A stretch of DNA of 27,542 bases from a virus, in the UHGV virus genome UHGV-0088497. The stretch is one strand, 5' to 3'. A program made the translations under genes and the position numbers. Under the pieces are notes generated by a model. That model searched no databases, was not told the DNA's origin, and worked only from the letters and a program-made list of their open reading frames with translations. Below, one piece after another: positions 1-10,675 of this stretch (positions are counted from its first letter, which is position 1; each line of letters begins with the position of its first letter).

Positions 1-33
1 AGGAAAACATGGTCAGGCAAAAGTGTAGCGGTA

Positions 34-255
34 TTAGGCGCAGCTATTTAGCACCTCATCAATCACATTCAACATATCAGCGAGAATGTAAGCTCTGTTC
101 CCGCCGTTAGAGTACTGGGTATCATGCTGCAGGTGTTCACGTATCTGGTGCAGGCGATCGACTGATACAGGACCGTTCGCCGGGTGGTTAGTTGTCATTG
201 AGCCTTTATTCATTACTGTTGTCCTCGCAGCAGTAGTGGCGTCCTTCTGGGTCAT
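34..255 (-). CDS. hypothetical phage early-region protein (73 aa)
   Basis: ORF in track; last gene of a same-strand chain of overlapping ORFs. Start uncertain: in-frame ATG at 213 (GAGG about 9 nt upstream, ATGAATAA overlap with upstream stop) or ATG at 198 are alternatives to 255. No recognisable motif. Confidence 0.4.
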   Translation of the reverse strand: MTQKDATTAARTTVMNKGSMTTNHPANGPVSVDRLHQIREHLQHDTQYSNGGNRAYILADMLNVIDEVLNSCA

Positions 256-475
256 CGGTTACAAATCCACACTCGCTACAGGTAAATTCATCTGGGGGAG
301 ATAAATCATCCTGACGGTTGTTATTACAAAAAGGATTACCATCACCGCCAGGCCACTCTTCAAGTTCGTCTTCACGCTGACAGTTCCGGCATAGGTCATT
401 GCCAGCCCACATATCCTCTTTGCATCGAGGGCAACGGTCTAAATCTTCATCTTTCACTGGCATCCCTCCTGGCAA
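206..475 (-). CDS. Cys-rich putative zinc-binding phage protein (CPRC...CRNC...CSEC)
   Basis: ORF in track with paired CxxC motifs. Codon at 475 is TTG; more likely starts are ATG at 463 or GTG at 457 (AGGAGG 7 nt upstream of the GTG). Confidence 0.5.
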   Translation of the reverse strand: MPGGMPVKDEDLDRCPRCKEDMWAGNDLCRNCQREDELEEWPGGDGNPFCNNNRQDDLSPPDEFTCSECGFVTDDPEGRHYCCEDNSNE

Positions 476-570
476 TCGTGGTTTTCTGGCTCATCGGCTT
501 TGTAATACCCGCCACAAACAGGGCAGATAACTAGCGGCGTCTCATCGTAATTTGAAGTTCCAGTAATCAT
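454..570 (-). CDS. small zinc-ribbon-like protein (38 aa, CPVC...C...GC), translationally coupled
   Basis: Hand translation of minus strand: MITGTSNYDETPLVICPVCGGYYKADEPENHDCQEGCQ. Its ATG (568-570) overlaps the TGA (567-569) of the upstream gene. Below the ORF-track length cutoff. Confidence 0.35.
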   Translation of the reverse strand: MITGTSNYDETPLVICPVCGGYYKADEPENHDCQEGCQ

Positions 571-821
571 TGTGCTGCTCCCTGTCTGGCTCTATTCAAT
601 AGCTGGTTAAACATCATGGTTAGGCTGTTACTGCACCCAAACGGCATATCGTTAACACGGTATGTTGGAATGCCCTTGCGAACACCTGACTTCACGATCC
701 GGCCTGTGCCATAGAGTTGCGATAATGCGCCAGCGACCGCGGGTGTCTTTTTGTTCATACCTTTGGCGATTTCACCGCTGGTGGTATTCGGATGAGCCTG
801 GAGATATTCAAATACGGTCAT
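567..821 (-). CDS. small winged-helix-like DNA-binding protein (84 aa)
   Basis: ORF in track; helix-turn-helix-like segment TSGEIAKGMNKKTPAVAGALSQL; basic C-terminus; ATGA overlap with the next gene. Confidence 0.5.
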   Translation of the reverse strand: MTVFEYLQAHPNTTSGEIAKGMNKKTPAVAGALSQLYGTGRIVKSGVRKGIPTYRVNDMPFGCSNSLTMMFNQLLNRARQGAAQ

Positions 822-994
822 GGCGTTTTACCTTTACGTTCCTGTTCCAGTTGCACCAGAGACTCTTTTAATGCTGCGAACGTAGCTTCCAGTCTGGTGG
901 CGACTTCGCGCATAAGCGGTGCATGCTTTGGTGGCAATTCAGCAACGGAGGCAAAAGCCTCAGCTACGAGTTCTTTTACCTTCATGCGGCGCAT
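818..994 (-). CDS. small hypothetical protein (58 aa), translationally coupled
   Basis: Hand translation: MRRMKVKELVAEAFASVAELPPKHAPLMREVATRLEATFAALKESLVQLEQERKGKTP. Sits between the stop of 982-1548 and the start of 567-821, with its TGA overlapping the ATG at 821. Confidence 0.35.
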   Translation of the reverse strand: MRRMKVKELVAEAFASVAELPPKHAPLMREVATRLEATFAALKESLVQLEQERKGKTP

Positions 995-1548
995 TGGCGC
1001 AGCTCCACCAGTTCGTTAAAGCGATTCATGAACAGGCCATAGGCTTGACCAGGGCGGAGAGGGATTACCTGAACGAGATCAGAGCAGGGAATACCTTCGA
1101 GAATTTCCCACTTCGAACCATCATCGATTTCCATATCACGGCGCTCGGTGGCTAACATGGTTAGATCGGCATATTTCACGACAGCAGCTTGTTCAAGTGA
1201 GATACCGAATTTAAAGCGGATAAGACCATCAACATAAGTTTCCATGCGCTGATAGTCAGGCAGCAAGGCTTTGAGCGGGGCTGGAATATCCTGGCAATAT
1301 GCCTCCGCAGCGTCGTGCATCAGCGCTTCAAAGGCGAACTCTGGCGGCACAATCTGGCTTACAAGCACAGAGTGCTGGGCCACACTGTAGAACTCTGGCA
1401 GATGCCCAGCGAATCGACAGATGTTGGAAAGCGCCGTCGCGATATCCTCAACATCGATATCGTCGATTGTGGCGGTCAGGTAGTTAAATTTTTTACCGCA
1501 TAATGTCTGAATGTAGCTCATGGTTTTCTCCATATTGGCGCGCTGCAC
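982..1548 (-). CDS. HD-domain phosphohydrolase (YfbR-like 5'-deoxynucleotidase fold)
   Basis: 188-aa ORF with HD-type metal-binding pattern (H...HD...D: AQHSVLVS, MHDAAEAY). Recognised from family memory, not searched. Confidence 0.6.
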   Translation of the reverse strand: MQRANMEKTMSYIQTLCGKKFNYLTATIDDIDVEDIATALSNICRFAGHLPEFYSVAQHSVLVSQIVPPEFAFEALMHDAAEAYCQDIPAPLKALLPDYQRMETYVDGLIRFKFGISLEQAAVVKYADLTMLATERRDMEIDDGSKWEILEGIPCSDLVQVIPLRPGQAYGLFMNRFNELVELRQCAA

Positions 1549-1675
1549 CGCGCAGATTTTGTTTGCACGAATCCCTCGCCAAAAGGCGAATAAAAGTTTG
1601 GGTTTCGTTTCAGTAAATGCCCCATCTATAGGTATTTAGCGCAACGGGTTGCTCCATCGTTATTATGCTGTTGTG

Positions 1676-1714
1676 TTAAATAGCTACCAAGATAGGTAGT
1701 GAGTAGCTATTTAA
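1676..1714. promoter_or_regulatory. perfect 12-bp inverted repeat TTAAATAGCTAC / GTAGCTATTTAA with 15-bp spacer (inner CTACC...GGTAG repeat) in divergent intergenic region
   Basis: Read directly at 1676-1687 and 1703-1714, between divergently oriented genes (1548 minus, 1774 plus). Likely a dimeric regulator site or hairpin. Confidence 0.4.
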
Positions 1715-1773
1715 CTACAGCAATGATTAGAGTAATCTGGATATCCTAATGTCTTTATTTTTAAGGTTTTTTT

Positions 1774-2259
1774 GTGGCTAGTGAAAAAAAATTAAAAATT
1801 CCATTCGATACCAACAAAAACTATTACAGTGGAATTCGTGGTGTTTTGAGCGGTATTGTTTGCTCTATGATCGGTGTTTATATTACCGGGCTATTTAGCG
1901 GAGCTATTAGTGTTGCTCAGATTTTTGAAATGCCAATAGTTATCATCAGTGCTTGGGTCGCTTTGTGTGCTTCTTTGTGGGCGATATCATATAAATTTGA
2001 AGATAGGGTTATATGCACATTTGGTCGTAATTGGGATTGTCCTAGAACAGCGAACTTTTTTTTATTTTTGCTTTACATAATGATAGGTGTCTTTTGTTCA
2101 CTTATATTCGAGGCCTTTCTGAAGGGGGGGGCCTCCCGCTCCTTATATGTTTCAATGGCGGGCTTTTTAGTTTTCTTACGACTTTTTTGTTTCTTCAGCA
2201 TTAAGAACTATGCTCAAATACAAAGCAAATCTGTTGATGAAACTAACCATGAAAAGTAA
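1774..2259 (+). CDS. AT-rich polytopic membrane protein (about 4 predicted TM helices), accessory gene beside the immunity region
   Basis: 161-aa ORF with GTG start at 1774 preceded by AAGG (1763-1766); four hydrophobic stretches; sequence visibly more AT-rich than flanking phage genes; contains a G8 tract (2124-2131) and a T8 tract (2056-2063). Confidence 0.6.
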   Translation: MASEKKLKIPFDTNKNYYSGIRGVLSGIVCSMIGVYITGLFSGAISVAQIFEMPIVIISAWVALCASLWAISYKFEDRVICTFGRNWDCPRTANFFLFLLYIMIGVFCSLIFEAFLKGGASRSLYVSMAGFLVFLRLFCFFSIKNYAQIQSKSVDETNHEK

Positions 2260-2291
2260 CCTGTATTAATAGGGTATCCAGATTGTTAAAG

Positions 2292-2318
2292 AGCGAAGCG
2301 TCCGATGGGCGCTTTTTT
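2292..2318 (+). terminator. putative intrinsic terminator (imperfect stem followed by T6)
   Basis: GAGCGAAGCGTCCGATGGGCGCTTTTTT shortly after the stop of 1774-2259; stem is imperfect. Confidence 0.3.
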
Positions 2319-2403
2319 GTTGCCTGCGAATCATCCGGTTATTCATATGCCACCGGCGGCTACTTCGTGGGCGTCCTGCCTGTTCGCTGTTGATGAATGA
2401 AAT

Positions 2404-2460
2404 CTAACTTAACTTAGCTTTGAGATCAAGAAAAAACACCAAACCATTCTTAGCTTGATG
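2404..2460. promoter_or_regulatory. OL-like operator repeats (CTAACTTAACTTAG; CTTAGCTT motif twice)
   Basis: CTAAC-N4-CTTAG at 2404-2417 and CTTAGCTT at 2413-2420 and 2449-2456 share the half-site seen in the cI/cro intergenic operators (3136-3203). Confidence 0.4.
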
Positions 2461-2483
2461 TTAAGAGGAAGGTTAGAGGTGGG

Positions 2484-3110
2484 TTAAAGTTCGTACTGAA
2501 CGCCTTTGACAACTCCGATAATCAGGCAATTACCGTTTATTGAAATGTTTGGATAGCGTGGATTCAAGGGAACTAAGAACTTTTGAGGCCCATCGATGAC
2601 GAGTTTTTTTACAGTAGCCTCGCTTGTCCCATCAAGCCTGGCTACGACTATCTTTCCATTAAATGGCTCTGCATCAGGATCTACTATGACCGTTGCCCCT
2701 TCTGGGATTGTGGGGAGCCCATTAGGGTTTGTCATCGAATCACCTTTGACCTCCAATGCAAAGGAGCTATCACCTATCCTGAGTGATGTTTCTACCCACT
2801 TATCTACTTCACTGAAAACTTCTGCTGCTTTACATTCTGTAAACTGTCCAGCCTGAACCCAAGATATCACCGGAATCCTTCGCATCTTGGTTATCAGATT
2901 CCCTTCGAATTCAGTGCCATAAAGTATGTAATCAATTGATGTGTTGAAATACTTTGCAAGTTTCGCAAGTGACTCACCGCCTGGCACATTAATGTCTTTT
3001 TCCCAATACCCAACCGCCACATCGCTAACACCACAGAACTTACCCAGTTCTTTCTGCGAGGTTTTAGTTATGCGCCTGAGAGCTTTGATGCGCTGACCGA
3101 CAGTTTCCAT
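2484..3110 (-). CDS. cI: CI-like prophage repressor (N-terminal HTH_XRE, C-terminal S24/LexA-like autopeptidase)
   Basis: HTH segment QKELGKFCGVSDVAVGYWE; S24 hallmark GDSM (Ser) with downstream Lys (KKLV). ATG at 3110 gives METVGQRIKAL; the ORF-track start at 3143 is TTG and unlikely. Divergent from the cro-like gene. Confidence 0.85.
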   Translation of the reverse strand: METVGQRIKALRRITKTSQKELGKFCGVSDVAVGYWEKDINVPGGESLAKLAKYFNTSIDYILYGTEFEGNLITKMRRIPVISWVQAGQFTECKAAEVFSEVDKWVETSLRIGDSSFALEVKGDSMTNPNGLPTIPEGATVIVDPDAEPFNGKIVVARLDGTSEATVKKLVIDGPQKFLVPLNPRYPNISINGNCLIIGVVKGVQYEL

Positions 3111-3133
3111 TTGAACACCATAAAAAATTAAAA

Positions 3134-3205
3134 GGCTAAGCAATCTTAGTTTTTATTGACCAAAGTTAGATTGGTTATTAATATCTAATCAAACTTAGCT
3201 AAGGG
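3134..3205. promoter_or_regulatory. OR-like operator/promoter region between divergent cI and cro (PR candidate -35 TTGACC 3156-3161, -10 TAATAT 3179-3184)
   Basis: Palindromic sites CTAAGCAATCTTAG (3136-3149), CTAATCAAACTTAG (3185-3198) and CTTAGCTAAG (3194-3203); sigma70-like hexamers with 17-bp spacing for the rightward promoter. Confidence 0.6.
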
Positions 3206-3211
3206 GGCATT

Positions 3212-3439
3212 ATGACAACCGATGATATTGAAAACTACTTCGGCAGTACTGAGAAAGTTGCCGAGTTTTTTGGAATCACAAGCGAGGCCGTTTACCAGTG
3301 GCGTAATAGAACTGGTCGCCTAATCCCGAAAGGACGTGCAGCAGAAGCAGCCTATCGGACTGGGGGAAAATTGGTTTTCCATCCCGACCTTTACGAAAAG
3401 CGTAGCGATGCTTCAGTAAAACTCAAACCACAGGAATAA
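3212..3439 (+). CDS. cro: Cro-like small DNA-binding regulator
   Basis: 75-aa ORF divergent from cI, SD AGGGGG upstream of ATG 3212, HTH-like segment FGITSEAVYQWRNRTG; position-typical. Confidence 0.65.
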   Translation: MTTDDIENYFGSTEKVAEFFGITSEAVYQWRNRTGRLIPKGRAAEAAYRTGGKLVFHPDLYEKRSDASVKLKPQE

Positions 3440-3449
3440 GGGGGGAGCT

Positions 3450-4001
3450 GTGGGTAACGAACCTATTTGGAAAGTCGAACGTCAGCCAGCCTGGCTGGTG
3501 GCGGCGATAAAAAAAACGATCACCGATCTTCCTGGTGGTTATGCCGAGGCGGCGGAATGGTTGGGCGTGACAGAGAACGCATTGTTCAACCGCCTTCGTG
3601 TTGACGGCGACCAAATCTTCCCGCTGGGCTGGGCAATGGTTTTACAACGTGCTGGTGGTTCAACTCATATTGCTGATGCCGTTGCGCGCCATTCTCAGGG
3701 CGTATTTGTACCGCTGGCAGATGTCGATGATCTGGATAACGCCGATATCAACCAGCGCCTGATGGAGTCCATCGAATGGATAGGCCGTCATTCGAATTTT
3801 GTACGTAAAGCCACGGCTGATGGGGTAATTGACGCAGATGAGCGTGCTCAGATTGAGGAAAACAGCTATCAGGTTATCGCGAAGTTCCAGGAGCACGTAA
3901 CGCTTCTTTATCGAGTTTTTTGTGTCGCTGAAAAGAGTGACGCCCGCGAGTGTGCAGCTCCGGGCGCCTTGGCGAACAACTCTTCGAGTATGGAGAAATA
4001 A
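3450..4001 (+). CDS. CII-like (CP76-type) lysogeny-establishment regulatory protein
   Basis: 183-aa ORF immediately after cro, GTG start with AAGGGGGGAG upstream. Family call from memory of ~180-aa phage regulatory protein CII (CP76) proteins; not verified. Confidence 0.5.
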   Translation: MGNEPIWKVERQPAWLVAAIKKTITDLPGGYAEAAEWLGVTENALFNRLRVDGDQIFPLGWAMVLQRAGGSTHIADAVARHSQGVFVPLADVDDLDNADINQRLMESIEWIGRHSNFVRKATADGVIDADERAQIEENSYQVIAKFQEHVTLLYRVFCVAEKSDARECAAPGALANNSSSMEK

Positions 4002-4149
4002 TCCGCATGAGCAGTTTAACGGCTTTTAACCGTCTACCGCAACTCAGGATAATCCCGGTTTCGGGTACTCCGTTGTTTCGGTATGAACGCAGATTATCAA
4101 CCCGCTGGGTTCCGTGTAACCACAGTAGGGCGGTTTCAATTGTGGGGGT

Positions 4150-4344
4150 CTACAACCGGAGGGCAAAACGCCTGTGCGCGAACTTAACCGAAGGTTCAAA
4201 GACCACCGTGGAGTGCCAGTCCGTGTTATCCGCTGGGAGCCAGAAACACAGCGCGTTATCTATCTGCGTGATGGCTACCCGCACGAATGCTTCAGCCCAC
4301 TTGAGCATTTCAGGCAAAAATTCAGGGAGATAACGGACGATCAT
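4150..4344 (-). CDS. hypothetical small protein (about 65 aa) antisense in the cII-like to replication-gene gap
   Basis: Minus-strand ORF with more typical codon choice than the competing plus-strand ORF 3950-4333, which is rich in AGG/AGA/CGG/CTA codons. Weak call; the region may be non-coding. Confidence 0.2.
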   Translation of the reverse strand: MIVRYLPEFLPEMLKWAEAFVRVAITQIDNALCFWLPADNTDWHSTVVFEPSVKFAHRRFALRL

Positions 4345-5209
4345 GAGCACTAAATTAACCGGCTACGTATGGGATGGTTGCGCGGCGTCGGGCATGAAGT
4401 TGTCTAGTGTCGCGATCATGGCTCGACTCGCTGATTTCAGCAGTGATGAGGGCGTATGCTGGCCGTCAATTGAAACTATTGCTCGCCAGCTTGGCGCAGG
4501 CCCGAGCACTATCAGAACGGCAATCGCAAAGCTTGAAAAAGATGGCTGGCTCACGCGTACACAGCGCCGTAATGGTAACCGTAATGCTTCGAACGTGTAC
4601 CGCCTGAATGTGGCGAAACTTCAGGCTGCCGCATTTTCTCAACTGTCAGATTCTGACACATCAAAATCTGACGCATCAAAATTTGACACCTCAAAAACTG
4701 ACCCGTCGAAATCCGGCAAAAACGGCGGTTTTGACCCGTCAGAATCTGGCGGGGATCCGTCAGTAAAATCAAAACAAGATCCACAAGTAACTTTAAAACC
4801 CTCTTGTCCGGTTGCGGCGCAACCCGACCCTGAGGTTGTGATTACTGATCAGGCCAGACAGGTTTTGTCTTACCTGAACCAGACAACTGGTTCACGCTAC
4901 CAGGTATGCAGCACGTCGCTGGAGAACATTCGCGCCCGTCTGCGGGAACAGTTCACTGTTGATGATCTGTGCCTTGTGGTGGATTACAAAAACGCTGATT
5001 GGCGTGATAGCGAGCAGGCTCAATACCTCCGCCCGGCAACTCTGTTTATTCCAAAAAACTTCCCCGGTTACCTGCAAAGCGCGACCAAATGGTCTGCCGC
5101 TGGGCGACCTGAACGCGTTAACGGTAAATGGGCGACTAACTCAGCCAGCCGCGCAAACTTCCAAAATGTTGACTATTCACTGCCAGAAAATTCGGGGTTC
5201 CGCTCTTGA
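4343..5209 (+). CDS. replication initiation protein (N-terminal wHTH, conserved phage C-terminal domain; functional analogue of lambda O)
   Basis: 288-aa ORF after the cII-like gene; N-terminal HTH (PSIETIARQLGAGPSTIRTAIAKLEKDGWL); internal iteron repeats within the linker coding sequence, as in lambda O. Confidence 0.75.
   Translation: MSTKLTGYVWDGCAASGMKLSSVAIMARLADFSSDEGVCWPSIETIARQLGAGPSTIRTAIAKLEKDGWLTRTQRRNGNRNASNVYRLNVAKLQAAAFSQLSDSDTSKSDASKFDTSKTDPSKSGKNGGFDPSESGGDPSVKSKQDPQVTLKPSCPVAAQPDPEVVITDQARQVLSYLNQTTGSRYQVCSTSLENIRARLREQFTVDDLCLVVDYKNADWRDSEQAQYLRPATLFIPKNFPGYLQSATKWSAAGRPERVNGKWATNSASRANFQNVDYSLPENSGFRS
4643..4775 (+). repeat. iteron array (ori-like): about six degenerate copies of CTGACNCATCAAAAT at ~15-bp period, followed by an AT-rich stretch
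   Basis: Read directly: ctgacacatcaaaat / ctgacgcatcaaaat / ttgacacctcaaaaa / ctgacccgtcgaaat / ttgacccgtcagaat / ccgtcagtaaaatcaaaa; encodes the repetitive SDSDTSKSDASKFDTSKTDPSKS peptide. Confidence 0.6.
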
Positions 5210-6525
5210 TGCCAAATAAATATTGCCAGGCGCTGGCAGAACTGCGCAGTAAACCAGCTCACGAATTGAAAGAAGTTGGAGATCAGTGGAGGACACCTGA
5301 TCTGCTTTTCTGGGGGATCAACGCGTTATTTGGCCCATTAGTTCTGGACTTGTTTGCTGACGACGACAACGCGAAATGCCCGGCATGGTACACCGCCGAA
5401 GATAACGCGCTGACCCAGGACTGGTCTGAACGTCTGGCAAAACTGGGTGGTGCAGGTTATGGCAACCCACCGTATAGCCGTTCGCAGTACCACGAGAAAC
5501 AGGCGATCACTGGTATGACGCACATCATGAAGTACGCAGCAGCCCAGCGCGAGAAGGGCGGTCGCTATGTATTCCTGATAAAAGCCGCGCCAAGTGAAAC
5601 GTGGTGGCCGGAAGATGCCGATCACATTGTATTCATTCGCGGGCGCATTGGGTTCGATCTGCCTGTGTGGTTTGTACCTGCTGACGAAAAACAGAAGCCC
5701 ACCAGCGCGTTTTTTGCCGGTGCCATAGCTGTATTCGATAAGTCATGGCGTGGTGAGCGGTTCAGCTATATCAACCGTACCGAACTGGAGGCAAAAGGGC
5801 GGGCGTTTATGACTTTGGCGCAATTTGCTGCCAGCAAGTCTCAACCTGCAACTGCCACACCATCTGTAGCTGACAAGCCAGAAGCAGAGTTGCCACTTAC
5901 CCAGAAAGATATTTTTGATATCAGCGGTGTCGAGGCGTGGGCATGCGTTAGAGCTGCGTTCGGCGATAAAGAAGAATACACATTTAGTGAATCGAAGTTT
6001 GGGCATACCTGGGCGGCGGATTCTGTCGAAGCACCGGAATTCACTCAGGTATCACCATTAACGATCGACAAAGCGAAGCTGCTTATTCGTGAGAGTATTT
6101 TGTTCGGTGTGGATGAGTGGCTGTTGTCGATTGAATTCGATGACGCTGCTGCGCGCCTGGATATGTCGGAACGTATTCGTACTGTTGCCCTTGAAGCATC
6201 TGGTGAATATGGCATGAACAGTACTGATTTCATTGCAGCTATGGGAAGCCTGGATGTTTCCAGTTGGTCCAATATTCGCCAGATCCGCATGCACATCCGT
6301 GAGAAAACTAAACCAGTATCGGATCCGCTTCCCGAGTCCCGTATCTGGCCGCTGGAGGTTGGAATTGTATTCGACCAGGTAGACGGCGCTGACATGCTGG
6401 ATGAATCACAGCAGAACAAGCTGAAAGCCAACATCAATCAACTCTGGCTGGAACGAACGGCCACCAGCGAAATCATTACTGCTGCTTCTGAACTTGTTCG
6501 CAATATGCGGGGAGAGGCCGCGTGA
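5209..6525 (+). CDS. phage Dam-family N6-adenine DNA methyltransferase (NPPY motif) with a ~250-aa C-terminal extension of unknown function
   Basis: GNPPY catalytic motif in the N-terminal ~190 aa; ATG at 5209 overlaps the upstream TGA; the C-terminal region has no motif I recognise. Confidence 0.7.
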   Translation: MPNKYCQALAELRSKPAHELKEVGDQWRTPDLLFWGINALFGPLVLDLFADDDNAKCPAWYTAEDNALTQDWSERLAKLGGAGYGNPPYSRSQYHEKQAITGMTHIMKYAAAQREKGGRYVFLIKAAPSETWWPEDADHIVFIRGRIGFDLPVWFVPADEKQKPTSAFFAGAIAVFDKSWRGERFSYINRTELEAKGRAFMTLAQFAASKSQPATATPSVADKPEAELPLTQKDIFDISGVEAWACVRAAFGDKEEYTFSESKFGHTWAADSVEAPEFTQVSPLTIDKAKLLIRESILFGVDEWLLSIEFDDAAARLDMSERIRTVALEASGEYGMNSTDFIAAMGSLDVSSWSNIRQIRMHIREKTKPVSDPLPESRIWPLEVGIVFDQVDGADMLDESQQNKLKANINQLWLERTATSEIITAASELVRNMRGEAA

Positions 6526-8600: not shown

Positions 8601-8617
8601 GTGTATGGAGAAAAGTG

Positions 8618-8983
8618 ATGCGTGATATTCAAATGTTACTTGAAAGATGGGGCGGGTGGGCTGCCAGTGATAGTTCTGGCGTGGACTATTCTCCTATAGC
8701 TGCAGGATTTAAGGGGCTGTTGCCGCAAACAGGTAGATCCCGACCGTCATGTACTGACGATGATGCGCTGATCATCGAAGGTTGCCTGGCGCGATTGAAA
8801 AGCCGGAAACCATATGAGCATTCACTGCTTGTAGCTCACTATCTGTATGGAATATCCAAGAGGAAGATCGCAAAAGTGCGTAAAAAAGATGAGAAATTGA
8901 TACGGATCGAGATACAGATGGCTGAGGGGTTTATTGATGGCTGCCTTTCAATGTTGGATGTAAGGCTTGATATGGATGAATAA
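8618..8983 (+). CDS. late-gene antitermination protein Q (Phage_antitermQ family)
   Basis: N-terminal RDIQMLLERWGGWAA and central AAGFKGLL...DDDALIIEGCLARLK...LLVAHYLYGISKRKIAK resemble Q-like antiterminators of Salmonella/E. coli lambdoid prophages; GGAG upstream. Confidence 0.7.
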   Translation: MRDIQMLLERWGGWAASDSSGVDYSPIAAGFKGLLPQTGRSRPSCTDDDALIIEGCLARLKSRKPYEHSLLVAHYLYGISKRKIAKVRKKDEKLIRIEIQMAEGFIDGCLSMLDVRLDMDE

Positions 8984-8989
8984 CTAATT

Positions 8990-9023
8990 GTTAACATTAT
9001 GCCCCGTGTAGGGGCCTAATGTT
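8990..9023. terminator. long imperfect hairpin (AACATTATGCCCC-GTGTA-GGGGCCTAATGTT) between convergent Q and the minus-strand cassette; tR'-like or bidirectional terminator candidate
   Basis: Inverted repeat read directly; no strong T-run, so function is uncertain. Confidence 0.35.
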
Positions 9024-9471
9024 ACAAGTGAGGGAAAATTCTACGCAGCACTAACCAACACCTACCAAATGTGCAAAGTGAAAGGAGCAGCGAAGACAAT
9101 CCTAACAGGAGAAATAAAAAATCAATTGGTTGAGCAAAGACCTTAACATCCTCTGGTAAGAACATAGCGATCAGTGGAAACAAGCAGGCCAAAATCAGCG
9201 TCAACCCTGTTGATAGCAAGCGATTTATCAATGTTGGTAATATATTATTCCTTTTGAGGGCGTTAATGGCCCCATCTTTGTCACTATCTGCGCTACTGAA
9301 TATAGATATAGCGGCGAGAACAAACCCAAAAAGAATTCCTGAAATTGTCGAAAGCACACCTGCTGTAGTTAACACATCAGCATGTTTCATAGGCTTAAAC
9401 AGTTTTGTCGCTGCATAAGTAATCAGAACTAAGAGGACCACTTTCCAAAAAAGAGTTAGAAATTCTCTCAT
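9022..9471 (-). CDS. small 4-TM inner-membrane protein (149 aa), second gene of two-gene accessory cassette (RexB-like architecture)
   Basis: Four hydrophobic helices; strong SD (AAGGGAGGA) upstream of ATG 9471, 18 nt after the stop of the upstream gene; AT-rich sequence. Confidence 0.65.
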   Translation of the reverse strand: MREFLTLFWKVVLLVLITYAATKLFKPMKHADVLTTAGVLSTISGILFGFVLAAISIFSSADSDKDGAINALKRNNILPTLINRLLSTGLTLILACLFPLIAMFLPEDVKVFAQPIDFLFLLLGLSSLLLSLCTFGRCWLVLRRIFPHL

Positions 9472-9489
9472 TTTGTCCTCCCTTTTGCG

Positions 9490-10437
9490 TTACTGGTTTT
9501 TTTTTGCAAGCTCATACTGTGCAAGGTAATTTGCATTATCAATTTTAGCAGATATCATCGCCGTCCTGATATCAGAATCAGAAGGATAGCCGCTTTTTAC
9601 TACTATAGTTTTCGAGCCTATGAGCACTTGATCAAGTAGGCTTTTTGGCGCTGTATCTGATGGTTCTGTTACATCAATTTTCTTGATGTTTAGCCCGCCA
9701 GAGCCTTTGGGGAATAGTTCAAGCAGTTCTTTAATAGCATCAGTAACTGATGATTTAAGATAGTTGAAGCCTGCTCTTTTGGGACGAATGCGACCGCGCA
9801 TGTTAAGTCTCAGGTGTGAACCGCCCATACCAACCACCATATCAATGATGTCATTAGTAAGGTCATTCTTAATCTGATAATTAGCTTTATTGAAATTTCT
9901 TGGCGCTGCGACAGTGAGGTCAAAACTGCGAAGGATGTTCCCATCTTCAAGAAGTTCCTTCATGCTCTCGTGCTTCCAGATAGCCTCGAATGTAACATTT
10001 TTCATTTGTGTCTTGTTGTACAGAATGAAAGATAAATCATTCACTTTGGGGCCTAAATGGTTGAGAGTCATTGCTAGTAAATCTGTTTCAAAGTAGTAAA
10101 TAAAATATGTCCGTTCTACTACTGAATCTTTATCGCTAAGCGGTATCGTTCGCTCGCTTCCTGTGGTGCCATCCTCGATAAAAGGTAAGAGACAATCACG
10201 CCTCCACGAGACATACCCAAAATAACTCTGCTGCTTATCATCCTTTTCAAGAATGACAAGTTTTAAACCGCGGTTTTGGGTTTCTGCTGTCACCACTAAA
10301 GGGAATGTAACCGGAGTCGTGTTTGTCATTTGCTCGAATGCAAGTTTCGCTGTAGACAGACCGTCTTTTTTACTTCCATTTCCAGTGAAAAAGCCAACTC
10401 TTACGCGACGAGTTTTCTTCTTATCTTCTGTAGTCAT
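9490..10437 (-). CDS. soluble 315-aa protein of unknown function, first gene of two-gene accessory cassette (RexA-like position)
   Basis: Long AT-rich ORF with no catalytic motif I recognise. ORF-track start at 10443 is TTG; ATG at 10437 is more likely. Confidence 0.65.
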   Translation of the reverse strand: MTTEDKKKTRRVRVGFFTGNGSKKDGLSTAKLAFEQMTNTTPVTFPLVVTAETQNRGLKLVILEKDDKQQSYFGYVSWRRDCLLPFIEDGTTGSERTIPLSDKDSVVERTYFIYYFETDLLAMTLNHLGPKVNDLSFILYNKTQMKNVTFEAIWKHESMKELLEDGNILRSFDLTVAAPRNFNKANYQIKNDLTNDIIDMVVGMGGSHLRLNMRGRIRPKRAGFNYLKSSVTDAIKELLELFPKGSGGLNIKKIDVTEPSDTAPKSLLDQVLIGSKTIVVKSGYPSDSDIRTAMISAKIDNANYLAQYELAKKNQ

Positions 10438-10675
10438 TATCAATCCGATGAGAATTTCTGATAAACGGACGAAAAATACTATAAATAATTGAGAAGATCA
10501 TTAGCGCGGTCCGCAAAAAGTGATGTAACGTGTTAAGAGTGGTTACTTGGTCACATTGCTTAATCATCAAATTCAGCTTCTGAGTTTTGTTTTAACGATG
10601 CTTGATTGTGCGACTTATCTCTCTGAAACTTATCTTCTTTTCCTTGACTATGAATTTTCTATCTAAGGAGGTTCT

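Follow-up and report, generated by a model that had tools for sequence, protein, structure and literature searches.

A conserved leader RNA behind PL and a membrane protein cassette in the sieB slot of a lambdoid prophage without N: a candidate for N-independent antitermination

The UHGV virus genome UHGV-0088497, a stretch of 27,542 nucleotides (nt) that is called the window throughout, is an e14/SfV-like lambdoid prophage with a cI-cro-YmfL (CII) immunity region, in which a Q antiterminator is present and N is absent. Beside cI it carries a plus-strand gene for a polytopic membrane protein of 161 amino acids (aa), and this gene is convergent with the leftward early transcription from the promoter PL, as the original prediction had stated. 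The leftward transcript contains about 760 nt with no translated frame between its boxA sequence and the start codon of the first leftward gene at 1521. The locus thus raises the question of how early transcription could reach the left operon without N, and of what kind of gene lies in its path. To our knowledge, early transcription through terminators and untranslated stretches in N-less lambdoid prophages has been largely unaddressed outside HK022 and HK639. Our analysis showed that the layout is an ordinary one, i.e., a cargo gene (moron) in the sieB slot, that the protein family is new, and that the neighbourhood holds a candidate for N-independent antitermination. Two elements that the original prediction missed, a structured leader RNA and a hairpin-boxA site, address the puzzle of the missing N.

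A structured leader RNA at the head of the leftward transcript

The segment 2272-2462 is conserved non-coding DNA, found by megablast in SfIV, SfV, SfII, ST64B, mEp460, ZF40, phiNP and many E. coli genomes, and most of those records annotate no feature at the equivalent place. PL was predicted within it on the minus strand at 2401-2429 (-35 element TTGATC at 2429-2424, a spacer of 17 nt, -10 element TAGATT at 2406-2401), with a start near 2394 as read from the sequence. The structured leader RNA of this transcript occupies 2326-2387 of the minus strand and begins with its helix P1 about 8 nt after the predicted start. P1 pairs 2387-2383 with 2330-2326, helix P2 pairs 2356-2352 with 2339-2335, and a near-invariant core of about 25 nt reads AGGCAGGACGCCCACGAAGUAGCC. 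Equivalent promoters of the TTGACA/TATAAT type were found 5' of the RNA in other loci.

The structure is supported by covariation. In an alignment of 30 sequences, 9 of the 13 pairs showed changes on both sides; P1 occurs as GCGAA/UUCGC, ACGAA/UUCGU, GUCAUC/GAUGAC or CCACC/GGUGG, and the changes in P2 are likewise compensatory. Paired cells amounted to 96.7%, whereas shuffles gave 72% and sliding of the partners gave no more than 49%. The leftward reading is the only one that contains G-U pairs, and the transcribed strand is fixed by this. For the central pairing of the core, GGC with the near GCC and GGC with the far GCY could not be told apart, and the search seeds had fixed most of those columns.

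The covariance model built for this RNA scored 97.9 bits at 2315-2398. A seed of 17 nt from the core was found in at least 120 viral contigs, and together with the loci fetched earlier at least 119 distinct versions were collected. All instances lie shortly 3' of diverse promoter-like sequences, near the 5' end of a transcript. Of 97 distinct viral loci (among the matches listed), 80 have a same-strand ORF (open reading frame) of at least 80 aa whose end lies no more than about 320 nt upstream of the RNA, and 59 of these 80 upstream ORFs carry HTH_3 and 38 carry Peptidase_S24. Since they are mostly helix-turn-helix repressors, the leader RNA stands immediately 3' of the repressor gene, as the first element of the early-left operon. 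When species-representative genomes were scanned with a degenerate pattern and then with the model, 62 genomic matches were obtained, nearly all in Enterobacterales (about 60 species). Three matches fell in genomes labelled otherwise, namely Chryseobacterium sp. (L180, 86.6 bits), Pseudomonas lundensis (L197, 86.2 bits) and Martelella alba (L201, 43.6 bits), which may reflect contamination, mislabelling or a wider host range.

The model also matched SfV, ST64B, SPN3UB (L135), mEp237 (L134) and one Aeromonas phage, in which the RNA heads early operons. In the e14 prophage of E. coli K-12 MG1655 (L139, 6103-6187; 72 bits) it lies between ymfK and ymfJ, in the 5' leader of ymfJ, at a site with no annotated RNA feature. 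The virulent, T5-like Providencia phage vB_PreS_PR1 (L136, 2473-2558) carries it in the terminal repeat, followed by a boxA-like CGCUCUUUAAAAA, at the head of the pre-early genes and upstream of the A2 and A1 DNA-transfer genes. The covariance model found nothing in lambda, P22, HK022, HK639 or Rac, which bear N or put. Searches against Rfam 15 gave no match for the whole window at gathering thresholds or for 1500-3300 at E <= 5, and none of relevance in five related loci. No description of the RNA was found in the literature by core sequence or by topic, in a search that did not extend to the survey of put-like RNAs by King et al. 2011. As judged from these comparisons, the leader RNA is a real, widespread and structured element, and it is apparently undescribed.

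The hairpin-boxA site and possible antitermination without N

Further along the leftward transcript, a bidirectional hairpin (2295-2315) is followed by boxA GCUCUUUAACAA at 2283-2294 of the minus strand, the only exact match in the window. On the plus strand, this hairpin with the T-run at 2313-2318 forms the intrinsic terminator of the membrane protein gene; on the minus strand it is boxB-like and stands 3 nt upstream of boxA. The terminator-like element named in the original prediction is therefore present, and what had escaped it is the second role of the same hairpin in a leftward hairpin-boxA site of the ribosomal RNA operon (rrn) type. The elements follow one another leftward as a hairpin directly after cI (from 2462 to 2435), the leftward operator OL with PL, the leader RNA (2387 to 2326), the bidirectional hairpin (2315 to 2295) and boxA (2294 to 2283).

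All 12 positions of the boxA agree with the boxA core in the E. coli rrnB leader. There, too, a hairpin comes first, 2 nt ahead of boxA (boxB-AC-boxA), and the two sites share the order of hairpin then boxA with a spacing of 2-3 nt. The hairpin is kept together with boxA in SfIV, in the loci L002 and L021 and in others. The site differs from the rrn leader in that no boxC-like UGUGUGGG follows boxA in the window, in that it belongs to a phage early transcript behind an extra structured RNA, and in that dependence on Nus factors is here a proposal. Rho terminates untranslated RNA, and boxA together with Nus factors prevents such termination at CRISPR (clustered regularly interspaced short palindromic repeats) arrays (PMC7665894); by likeness to the rrn leader and to the CRISPR boxA, the site would shield a long transcript that is not translated from Rho.

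In 27 of 126 distinct loci (among the matches listed), the leader RNA has a boxA with no more than one mismatch on its 3' side, mostly 60-80 nt past the core, and these 27 make up most of the 34 such sites in the 2.86 Mb of sequence collected. The first ORF was convergent in 23 of 31 boxA-positive loci and in 41 of 128 others (Fisher p = 3e-5), a count made with crude ORF calls and with kinship ignored; that boxA is commoner where the next ORF is convergent is thus only suggestive.

A boxA beside a hairpin is nut-like, and the leader RNA and the hairpin-boxA site could together be the nut site of an unrecognised N analogue encoded elsewhere. N-like proteins are small and diverge too fast for homology detection, and mEp021 provides a precedent, whose N-like protein Gp17 is encoded in the right operon and is served by three nut sites (PMC11893012). 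We consider this improbable here. The lambda nut site has boxA first and the boxB hairpin second, with N encoded downstream, whereas in the window the hairpin precedes boxA, as in rrn, and no N-like ORF follows. Lambdoid, Aeromonas and T5-like phages differ greatly in gene content and yet share the core, which favours a partner supplied by the host. The window shows no small ORF rich in arginine close to PL or cro, and between 2290 and 1549 the minus strand contains no ORF of at least 20 aa with a ribosome-binding site, in agreement with the absence of an N-like ORF noted earlier. A 42-aa antisense ORF (2073-2201, minus strand) was tried as an N candidate and rejected, having no ribosome-binding site and lying inside a Phe-rich coding region. 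It is rich in lysine because AAA is the complement of TTT in the Phe-rich sense frame, and its preservation in homologues of 93% identity is uninformative.

The known case closest to the leader RNA is put. The put RNA of HK022 modifies RNA polymerase just 3' of PL and needs no phage protein (PMC9378689), and it is the one phage RNA with such an action on RNA polymerase that a 2025 review of Rho termination names. As in HK022 and HK639, the window has a structured RNA of about 60-70 nt, a few nt from the PL start, in a lambdoid phage without N (PMC9378689). Unlike put, which consists of two side-by-side stem-loops, the leader RNA has a closing helix round two arms; it is present in a PL copy only, with no equivalent of putR, and it is often joined to boxA, and its function is at this stage a proposal. 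A relation to put was considered and rejected, since the covariance model matches the put RNAs of neither HK022 nor HK639. The HK639 record also contains an 'M3-like RNA' after a CII-like gene (L128, 37910-37969), besides a putL-like RNA, and its sequence is unrelated to the leader RNA.

The leader RNA might instead be some other cis element, such as a riboswitch-like or protein-binding attenuator, a 5' structure that protects against RNase, or the source of a processed trans-acting small RNA. A core of about 25 nt that hardly varies implies that the RNA has a specific ligand or partner, the hairpin and the U-rich sequence that come 11 nt 3' of the RNA could end a short RNA, and many instances have no boxA. 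Against this, there is no constant expression platform, and what comes next is a gene start, the hairpin-boxA, a large structured insert or a conserved extension. The RNA takes a put-like position after early promoters, ahead of long operons, in unrelated phages including T5-like ones (PMC9378689), and it was not found in lambda, P22, HK022, HK639 and Rac, which have N or put. We regard such a function as rather unlikely.

The sequences that follow the leader RNA are of several kinds. Inserts of 158-364 bp lie between it and the hairpin-boxA in L003/L004 (6541-6700) and L005/L006 (6541-6906), and also in L017, L022, L105 and L115. On the leftward strand they begin with GGURUCUUCGGGAGGGG, and the complementary CCCCGCCCGAAGAUAC stands at the end of the L005 insert, suggesting that a long stem closes round a variable interior; no Rfam match was obtained for these inserts. 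In L005, L006, L024, L030, L127 and L129, a conserved non-coding extension continues 3' of the RNA (...CAUGGCGAAAGCCG.AAG.CUUGAAGGCG...GCGCGCUAAAG.AUAGCGGGGAGAACCUGGGGCGG...), again with no Rfam match. In L134, L135, L137 and many IMG/VR loci with GUCAUC or CCACC as P1, the RNA is followed by UUAACGCGCAG.AGGU...AACGUUCCGC, a hairpin, AAGGGCAA and the first gene. This subclass has no boxA after the RNA and may use a different downstream module.

In our reading, the leader RNA would be a new class of phage processive antiterminator, unrelated to put and needing no phage protein, which would serve as the substitute for N in the large group of e14/SfV/ST64B/Gifsy-like prophages, which T5-like phages would also employ for the pre-early operon, and which would render early transcription complexes resistant to Rho and hairpin terminators either alone or with an rrn-type boxA and host Nus factors. 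In SfV, which has no N, the operon that follows the leader RNA contains an annotated intrinsic terminator. Several points weigh against this reading. Position is the sole basis for assigning antitermination, and the RNA shares neither sequence nor covariance-model similarity with put. The model found no second copy on the PR side of the window. Single-sequence folding energy was no better than that of shuffles and did not recover the comparative structure. Consensus boxA accompanies only about a fifth of the leader RNA instances, the association of boxA with convergent ORFs suffers from the crude ORF calls and ignored kinship mentioned above, and no strong minus-strand intrinsic terminator was predicted in the visible left operon. 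On balance, an antitermination function for the RNA comes close to an even chance, and the broader claim of a new antiterminator class is put forward tentatively, as possible and somewhat short of even.

The membrane protein gene and its slot

The membrane protein gene (1774-2259, plus strand; GTG start) has a ribosome-binding site, AAGG at 1763-1766, 7 nt 5' of the start codon. Hydrophobic segments were located by Kyte-Doolittle analysis at about residues 22-44, 53-73, 93-116 and 123-144, and an inner-membrane protein of four helices is predicted. The claim of a polytopic membrane gene with its own ribosome-binding site and terminator was thus borne out. Comparison with two Citrobacter homologues gave a ratio of non-synonymous to synonymous polymorphism (pN/pS) of 0.21; it is a real gene under purifying selection.

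The gene is carried by a low-GC cargo cassette of 718 bp (1554-2271). The original prediction had called it AT-rich, and the calculation agreed: the cassette has a GC content of 36.5%, as compared to about 50.8% (standard deviation 5.1) for the window, which contains no 718-nt stretch of lower GC content; only 0.04% of such stretches are as low. Its joints are a GC-rich hairpin, GCGCGCTGCACCGCGC, at 1538-1553 on the left and the segment 2272-2317 on the right. The left hairpin marks the left limit of homology with the loci L003-L006 and the right limit of the left-flank homology with L002. The unit 1538-2317 recurs with 92-93% identity in Citrobacter and Kluyvera prophages beside icd, whose cI genes are of three allelic types. 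E. coli 1943 keeps the flanks (567-1553 and 2272-4200) but has other cargo in the interior, including a different plus-strand ORF, and a Phytobacter prophage has a family member of 28% identity in the same slot, between the left operon and cI. An ORF scan revealed no partner gene within the cassette. Morons of lambdoid phages are cargo genes of deviant GC content with their own promoter and terminator. The cassette resembles them in its deviant GC content, its terminator, its insertion between backbone joints and the presence of other cargo in relatives; it differs in that no promoter was identified and in that the terminator is shared with the antitermination site of the backbone. The membrane gene is horizontally acquired cargo with its own ribosome-binding site and terminator.

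The family to which the protein belongs is rare. A word-indexed search returned six homologue clusters only, with identities of 89% or more, from Kluyvera, Citrobacter and Atlantibacter, and an exhaustive profile search of 1.84 billion representatives added 11 remote relatives of 23-51% identity. The motifs IPxxxNExYYxGLR, SMxGVY, NRV and LLYIxIGVFCSLIFD are common to the remote relatives. The HMM (hidden Markov model) and structure searches that had been proposed were carried out, and they matched the protein to no known family or fold. Pfam, PHROGs, PADLOC and NCBIfam gave nothing meaningful for the protein or for 14 family members. In PADLOC-DB the window protein had no match, and two remote members matched PDC-M18B weakly (E = 0.003). 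No match was found by tblastn of the protein against 50,697 phage records. AlphaFold with an alignment of 14 sequences predicted a bundle of four long helices (pLDDT, the predicted local confidence, 81; pTM, the predicted template-modelling score, 0.73), and with seven close sequences the model was unusable (pLDDT 48). Foldseek searches of the AlphaFold model against PDB and BFVD returned only matches with E > 0.5 and template-modelling scores of at most 0.38. The protein is, as judged by these sequence searches, a rare and unnamed new family of uncharacterised function.

The original prediction had placed the gene where lambda carries rexAB, on the opposite strand; this was not upheld. In the annotated lambda record, the cI transcript includes rexA and rexB, which are located between cI and OL, whereas the membrane gene lies beyond OL/PL, inside the PL operon and convergent with PL. 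The annotated records of lambda, P22 and Rac show sieB inside the PL operon, on the opposite strand, just beyond N/nutL, and the P22 record annotates a promoter and an RNA start site belonging to sieB itself. The slot is the sieB position and not the rexAB position; the layout is a known one, and no inversion of the rex layout is involved. The idea that the gene is an inverted counterpart of rexAB, with silencing by convergent PL transcription as its main logic, draws on its convergence with PL and on a size and topology near those of RexB, a small prophage membrane protein near the immunity region (161 vs 143 aa, both with about four hydrophobic helices). It is contradicted by the gene order. 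RexB is co-transcribed with cI and works with RexA, whereas the membrane gene is solitary, with no RexA partner; the hhalign probability against lambda RexB was 0.1%, and the positional precedent is sieB. We consider that idea very unlikely.

Like sieB, the membrane gene is a single accessory gene of the PL operon on the strand opposite PL, beyond the nutL region, and it encodes a small protein with hydrophobic segments. It differs in having no sequence or profile similarity to sieB and no N gene between the nutL region and the cargo. A census of the slot was made over 159 distinct leader-RNA loci with an ORF of at least 90 aa within 1.8 kb downstream, using crude mechanical ORF calls. The first downstream ORF was convergent in 64 of the 159. 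Among the 55 distinct convergent ORFs, one matched Pfam SieB, one matched BssS and the rest belonged to no family. The slot collects diverse, mostly unknown cargo. Cargo in the sieB slot is usually tied to phage exclusion. From its position and the type of protein, a role of the membrane protein in superinfection exclusion or abortive infection is plausible, although we hold it tentatively and below even chance.

That role has to be weighed against some other function in lysogen fitness or lysis, e.g., a toxin, a holin-like protein, an immunity protein, a transporter accessory or an envelope modifier. No member of the family of 14 matched SieB (PF14163) in Pfam at E <= 1, and the hhalign probabilities were 0.1% and 0.15% against the SieB proteins of lambda and P22 and 0.9% against P22 SieA. 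The 161-aa protein therefore has no similarity to the exclusion and defence families searched, and the exclusion role rests on position for that reason. This lack of similarity counts against exclusion, as does one remote relative that is chromosomal, adjoining fliE and outside any prophage. A role other than exclusion is consistent with both observations and also with slot cargo that is very diverse and mostly unknown. On the opposite side, there was no Pfam match to holin, colicin-immunity, GtrA or toxin families, the position is classically that of sieB, and the cassette has no partner gene. We regard such another role as possible and short of an even chance.

The expression of the gene in a lysogen is a further weak point, as no plus-strand sigma-70 site with at least 9 of 12 consensus matches was found upstream of it. 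Promoter scans returned sites no more numerous than in shuffles, and a promoter-like site on the minus strand (1690-1662) is not taken as evidence. A repeat search of the upstream region of 220 nt identified a perfect 13-bp inverted repeat at 1675-1715 (GTTAAATAGCTAC-N15-GTAGCTATTTAAC), each arm of which carries a boxA-like GCTATTTAAC, with a CTACC/GGTAG stem nested inside. The repeat is kept in locus L005 with one mismatch, and it may be an operator or an RNA hairpin. A second inverted repeat, of 15 nt and 93% complementary (AATCTGGATATCCTA at 1734-1748 and TAGGGTATCCAGATT at 2270-2284), brackets the membrane ORF. Its right arm runs directly into boxA, and AAUCUGG is found 3' of boxA in many other phages. 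In locus L005 the two arms form a perfect 13-mer with the palindrome GGATATCC. This bracketing repeat could be a recombination joint, a regulator site or a means of pairing the 5' and 3' parts of the mRNA.

The early region, the proposed mechanism and its meaning

The sequence, the ORF list and Pfam domains identify positions 1-6000 as the immunity and early region of the prophage. The cI repressor gene (2484-3110, minus strand) encodes HTH_3 and Peptidase_S24 domains and is followed by a terminator-like hairpin (2435-2462, minus strand), which overlaps the distal OL site; SfV has an annotated terminator at the equivalent place. The OL operators, of the CTAAG-N4-CTTAG type, lie at 2404-2417 and 2440-2453, between the membrane gene and cI as had been predicted, and the first of them overlaps PL. 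They match the rightward operator (OR) copies at 3136-3149 and 3185-3198. The operator pattern by itself is no more frequent in the window than expected by chance, and the OL sites were identified because they are paired with the OR copies and placed beside cI. To the right are cro (3212-3439, plus strand; P22_Cro domain) and a CII gene of the CP76/YmfL type (3450-4001, plus strand; by domain match), followed beyond the immunity region by replication genes, Dam, RusA, Rha/ANT, DUF968, the Q antiterminator (8615-8983), lysis genes and terminase. Directly after the Q antiterminator gene, in a classical position for cargo, a two-gene module (9022-10443, minus strand; products of 149 and 317 aa) was matched by neither Pfam nor PADLOC. 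The leftward genes run from 1521 down to the window edge. The first gene of the PL operon (982-1521, minus strand; ATG at 1521, GGAG at 1531-1528) shows a weak YfbR-like/HD match alone and is homologous to a left-operon gene of E. coli 1943.

On the plus strand, G exceeds C by 0.13-0.27 across the membrane ORF (200-nt windows), and the antisense RNA made from PL would be C-rich and G-poor. RNA of this composition favours Rho loading. In a lysogen, cI would shut PL, and the membrane protein gene would be expressed from its own promoter, weak or regulated, with its transcript stopping at the hairpin 2295-2315, before PL, OL and cI. The protein would most likely act in superinfection exclusion or abortive infection at the inner membrane, as an analogue of SieB, SieA or RexB and not as their relative. 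Once the prophage is induced, the leader RNA would, while still nascent, work in cis on RNA polymerase or on a host factor, as HK022 put does, and complexes started at PL would become resistant to termination with no phage protein involved. In loci that have it, the hairpin-boxA would bring in NusB/NusE together with the remaining Nus factors, as happens at rrn operons and CRISPR arrays. The modified complexes would then pass the hairpin and about 760 nt of untranslated antisense RNA with C in excess over G and reach the left operon; Rho would otherwise stop transcription in the cassette, before the start codon at 1521. The proposed antitermination site comes before this slot on the PL transcript, and for that reason convergent cargo could be tolerated there.

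The anatomy of the locus as described is very probably correct, and for the proposal as a whole, a membrane cargo gene in the sieB slot combined with an N-independent antitermination leader, the chances appear evenly balanced. With the membrane gene, the classical sieB slot gains an uncharacterised family, which could reasonably be proposed as a new membrane defence made of a single gene. Of greater consequence is the leader RNA, which is strongly conserved, supported by covariation, unannotated, located at the put position and frequently joined to a ribosomal-type boxA. Because it is present in the ymfJ leader of e14 in E. coli K-12, the hypothesis is directly testable with standard tools. 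A new antiterminator class, if true, would explain the insertion of cargo directly behind PL, and if confirmed, the leader RNA would be a second and far more widespread family of RNA-based processive antiterminators.

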